Below, piece by piece: positions 1,644-10,044 of a stretch of DNA of 64,000 nucleotides. Position 1 is the first letter of the stretch, and the number at the start of each line of letters is the position of its first letter. Both the position numbers and the translations under genes were made by a program. Source of the stretch: a virus (lineage: Duplodnaviria > Caudoviricetes); IMG/VR virus record IMGVR_UViG_3300014866_000001, positions 4,377 to 68,376 of that record; one strand, written 5' to 3'. The notes under the pieces were generated by a model. That model did not search any database. It had not been told where the DNA came from and saw nothing but the letters and a program-made list of their open reading frames with translations.

Positions 1644-2588
1644 CTATTTTGCTGATTGCAACAATTCCTTGATCGACCAGACGTGTTCTGTCAATCCGCT
1701 GGCCATCGCTGGCGTCTGGTTGCGAACAGCTTCGTTGCGTCGGCAGAAGTTGTACCACGCGACAAACAGTGCCGTCATCGCTGCGTGGTGACGGCTCGAC
1801 TTGCTGTGTGCATTCGTCAACCGAGTGTATCGGCGAATGTGCATCCGAACGGACAGGTTGAGCCGTTCCGAATAGCTCGTCGAAACTTCGTCCATGTTCG
1901 GGCTACCGAAGCGCGTCACGATCTCGATGCCGGTTATCGTCGCTGGGCTGTACCGCGTTTCCTCTTGGCTGCTTTTGTACGACTTGATTAGCTGAGCGTA
2001 ATCGCAACGCGAGCCGAGCGCGAACGGGACACCGTTTGTGTAGATTCCAAGCCCGTCCGTCGTCACTTGAATGCGACCACTGGTTGCGTTGTTCAATCGG
2101 TTCAGAAAACGTTCGCCAGTGTACTCATCACGTTGGCCAACGGCATGGGAAAGGATTAGCTTGGTGTCTGCGTCGATTCCCAACCACGTCCAGATATCTC
2201 CGCAGTCATCGTCGCGGCCAAGTCGTTCTTTGGTCTTTTGCTTGCATCCCGAAAAATCCCAGATTTCATCAAGCTGCGCGGCGCGAGTCTTCACGTTAAC
2301 GATTGCCGATTCCAGGAACTTATCGCAGTTCTCGCCAACGTGAACAATCAAATCGCAGATCGTTCCTGCCTTCATGCCGGTGATCCGCGAACAAGCGCGG
2401 ATGCTCATTCCCTCCAGCAGCATGTTGAGAACAACGCAAGCCTTATCCATGTCGACCCGCATTGCACCCAAGGGGCGCTCTTCGTTGCAGGTGAACATTG
2501 CGCCACAATCGCGACACTTCCAACGTTGCTGGCCGTTACGGATTCCACGCTTTGCTCGGTTCGTGTGTTGACATGCGATAGCGATCAT
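1644..2588 (-). mobile_element. IS1-family DDE transposase
   Basis: N-terminal Zn ribbon (C..H...CRDC), HTH, then QLDEIW / TTDG / ERLNLSVR catalytic motifs; terminal inverted repeats not found. Confidence 0.88.
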
Positions 2589-6447: not shown

Positions 6448-6545
6448 TGCATTCTCCCTATTCGCTCCCTCTGCATTTCCCCGGCTTGGGACGGGCGCGA
6501 CTGGATGGTCGCGGCTGCATTGAGCGCCCCGGACGGGGGCGGGAA

Positions 6546-6936: not shown

Positions 6937-7257
6937 TTAGGACTGCTGGATATTTTCAGAATTCGCGCGAGAAAGTGCCTTTTTCGCTTTCGCCGCCGCT
7001 CTGACTCCGGACTTTTGCACGCGGGCCTGGACGCTGGCGGTAGCGCCAGCCAGCCCCCTCTCTAGCCGGACGCCAGTCAGTTCGGACGCACGCAGCGGAG
7101 ATTTTTTCAGCCGAGCAAGCACCGCGCGTATCACCTCGGACGACGCGATATCCTCGCCGGTGAGTTCCGCCAGCCGCGCTCGCTCGGAGGCAATCAGGGA
7201 TAGCTCGTCCGCGCGAAAGCGGACTCGTAGGATTTTATTAGTCATTATCAATTCCAT
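6937..7257 (-). CDS. RHH-like DNA-binding protein
   Basis: ILRVRFRADEL...SSEVIRAVL; first gene after direct-repeat copy A. Confidence 0.5.
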   Translation of the reverse strand: MELIMTNKILRVRFRADELSLIASERARLAELTGEDIASSEVIRAVLARLKKSPLRASELTGVRLERGLAGATASVQARVQKSGVRAAAKAKKALSRANSENIQQS

Positions 7258-7268
7258 GTCCGAATAGA

Positions 7269-7328
7269 GTCACCTATATATACCCACGATTTGGAATAGG
7301 CAAGGCCAGCCGGAGAAAAAGTTGCACC
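7269..7328. repeat. 60-bp direct repeat, copy A
   Basis: 55/60 identical to 9943-10002. Confidence 0.9.
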
Positions 7329-7480
7329 GCGACACGACACTGTCTGCTCCAATCATCATTACCGGATCGAGAACGTACAACACCTCTGGTGGCAGCACAA
7401 ACACTCTTGCTTCTCAGTTGTGACTGTTTCGGTCCTACTCCTACTCAATGTCTCGCGCCGTGGACCGTTACCGACAGATC

Positions 7481-7588
7481 GTCGCAGCGTTCAAAGCCCT
7501 GCGCGGCTTGTGTTTCTCTTCACCCGGAAGCAATGGAGCACATCCTGGCAATGTCGCAGCGTTCAAAGCCCTGCGCGGCTTGTGTTTC
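7481..7588 (-). CRISPR. Mini CRISPR array: two identical 36-nt repeats and one 36-nt spacer; possible degenerate third repeat at 7389-7430
   Basis: GTCGCAGCGTTCAAAGCCCTGCGCGGCTTGTGTTTC at 7481-7516 and 7553-7588; internal CGCAG/CTGCG stem; 17 nt from the stop of a Cas12-like gene. Confidence 0.8.
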
Positions 7589-7605
7589 ACAGTCATTGTA
7601 ACTCA

Positions 7606-9438
7606 TTACACCGTAGCCATTGCGGGAGCATGTTGCGAGCGGCCAGTTTTTTGGTTCTCTTTGCGACCGCTCTTCTTGGCCAGCGACAACACCCAACTCG
7701 TGAATATATCAGAGCCGCGAGCTGGTCCCACAGTTTCCGGAAGCACGTCGGCTCTCGCAAGGCCGTAGCCAGTCAAGAGGGCCGATAGTTTGCCGGGCGA
7801 CACGGCTGCTAAATACTCCCTCGACCGCGATGGAAGTGGGTCAAACCGAAGTAGGTCCCGTGTGTCGTATCGCCTAATACTCGCTAAGTCGATCGGATCA
7901 ACCATAATCTCGCTGTGCAACGAGCACACTCGCCTTGCCACCGTTTCGTAAATCTTCTCAATACATCTCACCGCCCGACGCATGACCTTTGTCGCGCGGG
8001 AGATTGTCCGATTAAATTGCTCCAGTTTGTTGAACGCGCCGTTGTCCAGCGGATTCGCGCCGCAGTAATCCTCGAGCGCCGCGACACCCTGACGCTTGCC
8101 TGCTTCGGGATCGCTGCCAGTCCGCTCGATAATCTCCTCGTTGGCCAAATGGTCACATTCCTGCCGAGCAGCCGAGACAGCGAGCCGGGCATTGATCAGC
8201 CATCGCGGCAGGATCAGTCGCTCGTTAACGTGCGTGCCGAGAAAGTGACAGACCTGGATCCCGTCTGGAGTCGACCGCCACGTCAAATCGAACCCGACCA
8301 CGCCATCGCCTGTCGGCTTCACGAGTCCGTGATTCTTGACGATCGGAATAACTTCCCGCTTTCCAGATTCGCGAACAACGAGGCTCCACCTCCGAATAGT
8401 TCCATCAGTCGGTAGTGGTCGATGGAATTTTGCGCGGTAGGTAATCTGTCGGGGGTGATCCGCCGTCCCGATCTGATGGCGGACCTCGTACACCGTATGC
8501 TCGCGATTGGCCTTGTGCTGGGTGTAGATCGGCGTCAAGCACAAACATGTGTTGTCGCCGTCGATCGATTCGGATACCGGAAGGCCGCTGGCGAAGTGAA
8601 TGGAAATTTTCTCCCACGGCTTCGGCTCTGGGGCGCGATGATATTCGTACCGCATTCCCGGACCTGTCTTAGTGAGTTTCGGTTTGCTGGATTCGACAAT
8701 CTCGGCCCGAATGGCTGAATGCAATCCGCGCCCCTGGAATTCGACGGACAGTTTTCGTTGCTCAAGGTCGCACTCCATTTCCAGGCGTCCGATTGCCGCA
8801 ATGACGGCGGGATCAATCGTACCGAGTGGCTTGCGAGTGCATTCCTTGCCTTCCGCCCGGGCCTCTGATTCCGCAGCGGCTTGTTGAGCGACGTCGAGTA
8901 TCCGATACGGTTCGCCAGTCTCCGGCCACTCGATCGCGTCATACAACTTCTCACGCTTTTCCAGCGACTTGACATTTTTCCAGTCCGCCAGACTCGACCA
9001 ATACATCGCTCGGGCGCGGAGCGAATCCAGCCACGGACGCCGCAACTCTGAAATTGTCCGTTGCCAGTGGCCGCGACGTTCTCGGAGTTGCTCCAATCTG
9101 GCTCGTTGCTCGGCCAGCATGGCATTTTTGTCGCGGGTGTCGCTGTGATGTTTCTTGATTTCTTTTTCAAGCCACCAGATGGCGGCCTTCGACGATTCGA
9201 ACTCGATCATCGCCGCGAATAGCTCGGGGCACGAGTTGTTCCGCAGGTCAATGAGTCGACGGTGCCGCGAGTGAAGCGTGGTACATAGTCGCTCGCGATA
9301 TTCGTCAGCCAGTGCGAGTACGGCGATTTCGTCATCGCTGGCTTGACCGTAGACGCCGAATGTGCCGAGTGCTTGGGGAGCAGACATGAACGATGGCAGG
9401 TTCAAGAGAGAGGGGGAGCGGTGGTCGGTTATTTCCAA
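7606..9438 (-). CDS. Type V-U1/Cas12m-like (TnpB-derived) RNA-guided effector, probably nuclease-deficient
   Basis: LALADEYRERL N-terminal motif, FHRPLP, RuvC-I VVGFDLTWR, RuvC-II-like IMVDPIDL, no Zn ribbon; likely start ATG 9387 (593 aa). Confidence 0.75.
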   Translation of the reverse strand: MEITDHRSPSLLNLPSFMSAPQALGTFGVYGQASDDEIAVLALADEYRERLCTTLHSRHRRLIDLRNNSCPELFAAMIEFESSKAAIWWLEKEIKKHHSDTRDKNAMLAEQRARLEQLRERRGHWQRTISELRRPWLDSLRARAMYWSSLADWKNVKSLEKREKLYDAIEWPETGEPYRILDVAQQAAAESEARAEGKECTRKPLGTIDPAVIAAIGRLEMECDLEQRKLSVEFQGRGLHSAIRAEIVESSKPKLTKTGPGMRYEYHRAPEPKPWEKISIHFASGLPVSESIDGDNTCLCLTPIYTQHKANREHTVYEVRHQIGTADHPRQITYRAKFHRPLPTDGTIRRWSLVVRESGKREVIPIVKNHGLVKPTGDGVVGFDLTWRSTPDGIQVCHFLGTHVNERLILPRWLINARLAVSAARQECDHLANEEIIERTGSDPEAGKRQGVAALEDYCGANPLDNGAFNKLEQFNRTISRATKVMRRAVRCIEKIYETVARRVCSLHSEIMVDPIDLASIRRYDTRDLLRFDPLPSRSREYLAAVSPGKLSALLTGYGLARADVLPETVGPARGSDIFTSWVLSLAKKSGRKENQKTGRSQHAPAMATV

Positions 9439-9942: not shown

Positions 9943-10002
9943 GTCACCTATATATACCCATGATTTGGAACAAGCAAGCCCAACCGGAGAAAAAGTTGCA
10001 CC
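9943..10002. repeat. 60-bp direct repeat, copy B
   Basis: 55/60 identical to 7269-7328. Confidence 0.9.
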
Positions 10003-10044
10003 ACGCCCCGGAAACCACTAGAGTGATTCGTTCTTGGTCAGAAA

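Follow-up and report, generated by a model that had tools for sequence, protein, structure and literature searches.

A two-guide CRISPR mini-array beside the gene for a divergent Cas12m-like effector in a complete phage genome

We analyzed a stretch of 64,000 nt of viral DNA (hereafter the window) and found that it carries a genuine CRISPR mini-array with two guides, located on the minus strand directly behind the gene of a Cas12m-like effector. What we could observe comprises the array itself and its minus-strand orientation, the covariation of its repeats, the fold homology of the effector, the absence of Cas1 and Cas2 and the variability of spacers within the family. We regard it as reasonably probable that array and effector gene share one minus-strand transcript and that the system acts by guided binding without cutting, with rival phages or plasmids as the most probable targets. 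By analogy with characterized Cas12m systems we infer how the crRNAs are processed, that DNA is bound but not cleaved and what kind of target is involved, and a function as a binding-only silencer is plausible by the same comparison.

The window comprises bases 4377-68376 of a 68,376-bp IMG/VR virus record, which has direct terminal repeats and is rated complete. A large terminase and a portal protein are encoded in this phage genome, and its probable source run is a freshwater sediment metagenome. The elements of the locus are given below in window coordinates.

7269..7336 (no strand assigned): 68-nt direct repeat, copy 1, 88% identical to 9943-10010
7315..7340, minus strand: terminator-like hairpin with T-run from a consensus scan, 3' of the array and within the direct repeat 7269-7336
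7389..7430, minus strand: probable decayed terminal repeat, 42 nt, ends kept, stem and pseudoknot core lost
7431..7480, minus strand: second guide; the first 36 nt on the 3' side of repeat 2 are 7445-7480, with GATCTGTCGGTA leading in crRNA sense
7481..7516, minus strand: CRISPR repeat 2, 36/36 identical to repeat 1
7517..7552, minus strand: spacer 1, a 36-nt guide; crRNA sense corresponds to the reverse complement of the plus strand, with ATTGCCAGGATG at its start
7553..7588, minus strand: CRISPR repeat 1, 36 nt; 46.9 bits with model R1, E 4.6e-13
7606..9387, minus strand: predicted Cas12m-like effector gene, called product 593 aa (P0003)
9943..10010 (no strand assigned): 68-nt direct repeat, copy 2, upstream of the cassette as read along the minus strand

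Only 17 nt separate the stop codon of the effector from repeat 1 on the same strand, which on the minus strand starts with GAAACACAAGCC and ends with GCTGCGAC. The repeats next to which the sequence-only reading had placed its two spacers are indeed present, as identical 36-nt units at 7481-7516 and 7553-7588; with two copies and a start-to-start distance of 72 nt, they form the smallest possible array. The open frame of the effector reaches further upstream to a TTG at 9438 (610 aa, P0001). Guide 2 begins at 7480 and runs leftward, its 36 nt next to repeat 2 being followed by 14 nt more before the decayed repeat is reached. Since only this decayed repeat follows the second guide, the 3' end of guide 2 is undefined. 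In the source run, spacer 1 was found on a 96-nt unitig at a depth of 40.5, compared with 42.5-43.8 for the flanks, and a single form of the array was present, with no variant. Rfam placed no CRISPR-DR family on the array. The terminator-like sites that the consensus scan located in the region were as numerous as expected from shuffled sequence.

The two 68-nt direct repeats flank a cassette of 2.7 kb, consisting of a small ORF, the effector gene and the array. On the minus strand, each of them contains a hairpin resembling a terminator as well as an A/T-rich, promoter-like tract, and the promoter-like duplicated repeat may drive a 106-aa ORF (6937-7257, minus strand) that lies directly downstream of the array. 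The product of this ORF has no family match in four libraries, and its N-terminus appears ribbon-helix-helix-like by eye. Two small ORFs downstream of the array, positions 6463-6526 (minus strand) match the type-P1 twister ribozyme (RF03160) over the full model length with 59.7 bits (E 6e-12); the gathering score set by Rfam, 67.2, is not reached. Cas1 (PF01867) and Cas2 (PF09827) are absent from the complete 68-kb phage genome by a search that matched its controls, as they are from other type V-M and virus-borne systems (PMC11656645). Whatever spacer acquisition occurred must therefore have taken place in trans or in an ancestor.

The structure of the repeat RNA was analyzed on an alignment of 23 repeats from seven loci, in which two helices were scored. 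The first is a 5-bp stem around the loop GCGCAG, and the second is a pseudoknot helix, in which this loop pairs with the conserved 3' segment CTGCG-(A)-C. Pairing was found in 96% of the cells of this alignment. Changes on both sides of a pair occurred in six of the ten pairs, including all five pairs of the stem, and the pseudoknot helix is invariant save for one compensatory A-U to G-C change in locus L007. None of 500 shuffles equalled the covariation score, and slid partners paired at only 25-48%. The stem and the pseudoknot of the family repeat are well supported. Other type V systems carry the guide on the 3' side of the repeat. The crRNA of Cas12m2 likewise has a scaffold of stem and pseudoknot (PMC10442227), and this likeness places the guide of the phage array 3' of the repeat on the minus strand. 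Two crRNAs are consequently expected from the locus.

Besides the two array repeats, the covariance model R1, built for the family, detected only one further repeat when the entire genome of the phage was searched. This third repeat is a solitary copy on the strand opposite to the array and outside the window, at genome positions 2014-2049 (plus strand; L034:2014-2049, equivalent to L002:1502-1537). With 47.9 bits it has the highest score of the three. It differs from the array repeat at four positions and keeps the stem, with a C-G to U-G change, as well as the pseudoknot segment.

Next, we compared the locus with those of its homologues. In nine out of nine homologue loci read (L003-L011, all metagenomic, with the same protein in L004 and L005), a related repeat follows the stop codon after 10-25 nt on the strand of the gene. 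Wherever the contig continues past the first repeat, the copy number ranges from 2 to about 18. For example, L003 (66% identity) has 14 repeats with spacers of ~36 nt and degenerate terminal repeats, and about 18 were counted in L011 (39% identity), which lies on a 40-kb contig from the MAG of an uncultured Aquaspirillum. L006 belongs to a phage-like contig that also encodes RecT, YqaJ and a sigma factor, and carries two intact repeats followed by a stretch that by eye reads as a degenerate repeat; this layout matches the array of the window. Assemblers typically break contigs at arrays, and the contigs of L004, L005, L007 and L010 break off at the first repeat or within it, 25-53 nt past the stop codon. 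The core of the repeat is present in no other IMG/VR contig.

Several of these loci hold further arrays. In L006, a second mini-array of two repeats (L006:10262-10364) occupies the gap that separates recT from its neighboring gene, at a distance of 4 kb from the effector and the first array. L009 has arrays on both sides of the effector (L009:245-605 and L009:2323-2583), with repeat variants that differ in stem sequence and keep the pairing. The array of L011 (L011:4677-5986) mixes two variants of the repeat, namely the types CATACATAGGCC and T(A/G)TTCAGTGGCC, which suggests array recombination.

No spacer of L003, L006, L008, L009 or L011 matches another locus or the window phage. An identical spacer in all homologues, which the sequence-only reading had named as the mark of a fixed scaffold RNA, was therefore not seen; no spacer is common to any two loci, as expected of guides and not of a fixed scaffold. 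Its proposal that the two sequences are guides is borne out by the co-oriented Cas12m-like effector, the covarying repeats and the spacers that differ between loci. These observations bear equally on an explanation without guides, by which either a fixed structural RNA or a plus-strand ORF (7448-7768) with an internal duplication of 24 codons would account for the 36-nt units. In that frame the repeat reads VAAFKALRGLCF, and the ORF, which is opened by the ATG in the second guide, stays open for 106 codons. However, it is antisense to both the array and the 3' part of the effector gene, the conservation of the repeat within the family tracks RNA pairing and not codons, and homologues have up to about 18 repeats with unrelated spacers. 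An explanation of this kind is contradicted by the covariation and the spacer diversity, and we consider it extremely improbable.

Having established the array, we looked into the protein encoded next to it. PADLOC assigned two partial matches to the effector, namely Cas12u1 with E 1.9e-14 (profile positions 176-446 of 533 only) and Cas12f with E 3.7e-14. The Cas12u1 model represents type V-U1, which we take to be type V-M. No family of Pfam, NCBIfam or PHROGs was found in the protein. Among 5.8 billion proteins, 36 homologues were identified at 36-66% identity, all of them metagenomic and none with a functional name, and an exhaustive search of 1.84 billion cluster representatives gave 40 at E <= 1e-30. 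Relatives in IMG/VR were found neither with P0001 nor with the family alignment. The AlphaFold2 model, based on 35 sequences, has a mean pLDDT of 91.2, and its best folds in the PDB according to Foldseek are Cas12m2 (8hhl, E 7.3e-19, TM 0.50), 8pm4 (E 7.0e-17) and 8hio (E 1.0e-16). Cas12h1, the next family, is far behind with E 1.2e-7. At the level of sequence, the family profile had no match among the PDB sequences at E <= 10, and the structural alignment shows an identity of only 16%. Judged by its modelled fold, the effector is a phage-borne, divergent Cas12m-like protein.

A zinc finger (TNB) was not found, as the last 120 residues contain only C475, C488, H491 and H586 and no CxxC pairs; the protein ends ~90 residues past the RuvC-II candidate. 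The candidate RuvC positions D367, D500 and D560, placed by motif position and not by residue-level superposition, are all Asp in the effector, which may therefore have some nuclease activity. At the candidate positions I, II and III, Asp is present in 18, 29 and 31 of 35 homologues, respectively, and going by this alignment, catalysis does not look conserved across the family.

Among known systems, the closest comparison is type V-M, represented by MmCas12m, Cas12m2 (8hhl, 8hio) and GoCas12m (8pm4). Shared traits are a single effector of ~600 aa, for which Cas12m2 is the closest fold, a 36-nt repeat with a stem and a 3' segment capable of forming a pseudoknot (PMC10442227), and an array co-oriented with the effector, lacking adaptation genes and carried by a mobile element (PMC11656645). 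In contrast to Cas12m2, with its HCCC motif, and GoCas12m, with its ZnF, the effector described here has no zinc finger or TNB in RuvC; moreover, it has only the 16% identity mentioned above and is accompanied by only two guides. Its candidate RuvC triad is D-D-D, whereas the Cas12m clades have H-D-D, H-E-K or D-E-D. In our limited literature search, we found no description of a Cas12m-like family without a zinc finger.

Type V-M systems are enriched on plasmids and also occur in some prophages (PMC11656645). A 2026 preprint on MvCas12m of the myxophage MV-1 presents it as the first phage-encoded Cas12m and reports eight spacers and a D-E-D triad that is conserved; neither IMG/VR and IMG/PR nor host genomes yielded confident protospacers (bioRxiv 10.64898/2026.09.14.751636). 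Going by this description, the two systems are alike in being borne by a phage, in an effector of 610 aa, in an adjacent array without cas1, cas2 or cas4 and in the lack of protospacers, but differ in that MvCas12m has eight spacers and D-E-D instead of two guides and a candidate D-D-D. A second group to be compared are the viral mini-arrays (Medvedeva 2019, Faure 2019). According to the passages of PMC11656645 that deal with them, they borrow the Cas proteins of the host, have repeats identical to those of the host and mostly match related viruses. As in the case described here, one or two spacers are located in a virus that carries a solitary repeat elsewhere, and a role in inter-virus competition was proposed in the same passages. 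Unlike these viruses, our phage brings its own effector, and no match to a related virus was found in IMG/VR or among GenBank phages.

Based on these comparisons, the following course of events may be proposed. Effector and array would be transcribed as one minus-strand RNA that ends at the hairpin 7340-7315. This RNA would give rise to two crRNAs, one of repeat 1 and spacer 1 and the other of repeat 2 and the 36-50 nt beyond it, and by analogy with Cas12m the effector would process the pre-crRNA without RuvC. The guide-loaded effector would then bind PAM-flanked double-stranded DNA and block transcription or replication with no cutting. For Cas12m, it was shown that DNA binding blocks transcription or replication without cleavage and that pre-crRNA processing is independent of RuvC (PMC10442227, PMC11013384). 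The target would most probably be a phage or plasmid competing within the same host, with superinfection exclusion as the outcome.

The sequence-only reading had reported a degenerate, repeat-like stretch at 7389-7430, and this held for its ends, which match the repeat at 7/8 and 6/6 positions. As a whole, however, it measures 42 nt instead of 36, and model R1 misses it at E <= 10. Its global alignment score is attained by 0.12% of random 42-mers, and its head/tail pattern has one other occurrence in the genome outside the true repeats. Judged from its sequence, the stretch is probably what is left of a terminal repeat after decay, with the structural core gone. Guide 2 is unaffected by this decay, because it depends on repeat 2 only. 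A third repeat that has decayed next to only two intact ones raises the question of whether the whole array is a relic, with guides acquired long ago elsewhere via a host Cas1-Cas2, targets that are gone and an array that is now decaying. The lack of adaptation genes in the phage, the lack of targets described below and the single array form in the source run, at the depth of its flanks, are also in line with a relic. On the other hand, the two intact repeats agree at all 36 positions and have a perfect structure, and the solitary copy keeps its stem and pseudoknot segment and has the top score with the family model. In addition, the effector ORF is intact and yields a confident AlphaFold2 model. 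We therefore regard a relic as unlikely.

To the sequence-only reading, the two spacers had looked like gene fragments, one of which spans a possible start codon. Indeed, spacer 1 (7517-7552) reads LHPEAMEHILA in one plus-strand frame, and 7431-7480 contains caATG-TCT-CGC-GCC-GTG-GAC. However, spacer 1 is open in five of the six frames and the 50-nt stretch in four of six, which is chance-like: we estimate that a frame of 11-12 codons is open about half the time in DNA of 54% G+C. The translated spacers showed no similarity above shuffled controls to the phage's own proteins. The ATG at 7448 lacks a Shine-Dalgarno motif (bases just upstream, TCCTACTCCTACTCA), and by our estimate roughly three quarters of all 50-nt stretches hold an ATG on some strand. 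The further idea of a target at the 5' end of a gene took its clue from this same ATG and is thus not supported. The cues first noticed are chance features, and the spacers are ordinary, variable orphan spacers that add little for now.

To what are the guides directed? As stated in the sequence-only reading, neither of them recurs in the window (<=3 mismatches). In the whole 68,376-bp phage genome, no self-target was found with up to 14 mismatches, and the only two matches, 22-23/36 to spacer 1, are at chance level. The protospacers that had been expected in a competing phage or a host gene did not appear in IMG/VR or in the other collections searched. In blastn searches with 7389-7600 (E <= 10), 50,697 GenBank phages and 72,556 PLSDB plasmids gave short chance matches only. 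An exact PAM-proximal 20-mer of either guide was not present in IMG/VR, nor was a 22-mer of either guide in the JGI metagenomes, nor an exact 22-mer of spacer 1, the only guide scanned there, in GTDB with one genome for each of 185,579 species; such exact-word scans miss mismatched targets, and these negative results do not show that targets are absent. Within the contigs of the probable source run X1 and of X2, 7431-7552 is matched by the phage's own pieces only.

Two sets of partial matches were rejected. Distal 18-mers occur in the IMG/VR contigs L032 and L033, where the full comparison gives 24/36 and 23/36 with an unmatched PAM-proximal half, and we attribute them to chance. The same applies to 401 genomes from the order of MAG G001, in which spacer 1 reaches at best 22-25/36 in unrelated genes, including FHPEA motifs of the ribulose-phosphate epimerase-like kind. 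The unpublished genomes G380 and G206 likewise contain chance-level matches to spacer 1 only.

As no protospacer was found, no PAM can be inferred, and the assignment of the guides to rival mobile elements draws on the analogy with Cas12m systems of plasmids and phages and with viral mini-arrays. Alternatively, the guides may be aimed at chromosomal genes of the host, with the phage silencing a host function such as defence or a receptor in lysogeny or during infection. A target in the chromosome in which it lives is compatible with a binder that does not cut, and the phage has a temperate look, with a CI-like HTH repressor and, by eye, an integrase-like ORF beside tRNA-Asp. Host-gene targets would also agree with the ~30 spacers of L003 and L011, which gave no usable match in the curated phage and plasmid collections. 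Against them stand, as a weak test, the missing exact 22-nt match of spacer 1 across the GTDB species genomes and the 22-25/36 in unrelated genes of the 401 genomes. Furthermore, the about 18 repeats and their spacers in L011 are not matched a second time within the 4.7-Mb genome of the MAG that carries them. The identity of the host is not revealed by the terminase, which is uninformative in this respect, and the tRNA-Asp of the phage shares no more than 79% identity with any of 400 genomes sampled from the class of G001, the sole MAG with a homologue. In our view, host genes are improbable targets, and rival mobile elements stay the preferred ones.

It could further be assumed that the array encodes regulators of the crlRNA or CreR type, which would act by partial complementarity to promoters of the phage itself, for example in the autoregulation of the effector cassette. 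Mini-arrays and solitary repeats of this kind are known from cas loci (10.1101/2023.03.03.530964), and the 68-nt repeats around the cassette may carry promoters. The phage locus resembles the crlRNA and CreR loci (10.1101/2023.03.03.530964, 10.1101/2024.10.29.618823) in having a very short array or lone repeat by a cas gene, but differs from them in the lack of partial complementarity in the phage genome at the thresholds used. For either array guide, no match of the 12-nt PAM-proximal seed (<=1 mismatch) or of 16 nt (<=3 mismatches) was found in the phage apart from the array itself. Autoregulation of this type is, in our estimation, very unlikely, and targets outside the phage remain the reading that we prefer for the two array guides.

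The surroundings of the solitary repeat suggest a possible third guide. This repeat is part of the phage's early region and lies between a small ORF, which adjoins the gene of the CI-like HTH repressor, and three structured-looking units. The sequence downstream of it has no match elsewhere in the phage, and the 20-mer of the respective guide is absent from IMG/VR. The three similar units of ~120 nt (L002:1560-1960, genome about 2072-2472) each contain a CCTTTTGGCAA box with flanking inverted segments; they had no Rfam match at E <= 1 and were not called by Tandem Repeats Finder. A tRNA-Asp (GTC) at L002:2450-2526 (minus strand) is located beside an ORF (start near L002:2600) that by eye resembles the N-terminus of a tyrosine integrase, and this neighborhood suggests a temperate phage.

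One could envisage that the two array guides and a solitary-repeat guide form a fixed set of three for a Cas12m-like DNA binder without zinc finger, the CRISPR parts having been rewired into the circuitry of lysogeny or exclusion and no longer serving adaptive immunity. The phage sequence that follows the solitary repeat would then serve as a guide directed at close relatives without the insert; alternatively, the repeat would dock the effector on the early transcript of the phage. We mention this scheme as a tentative one to which we assign a low probability.

CRISPR systems of phages that bind DNA but leave it uncut have only begun to be described. The effector presented here stands for a family of ~40 sequence clusters, which was found in metagenomes only, has no functional annotation and appears to be Cas12m-like without a zinc finger. 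As a compact protein, it could be of interest to tool builders. Should its guides be matched to targets, one would learn what a temperate phage of freshwater silences, be it a rival element or a gene of its host.
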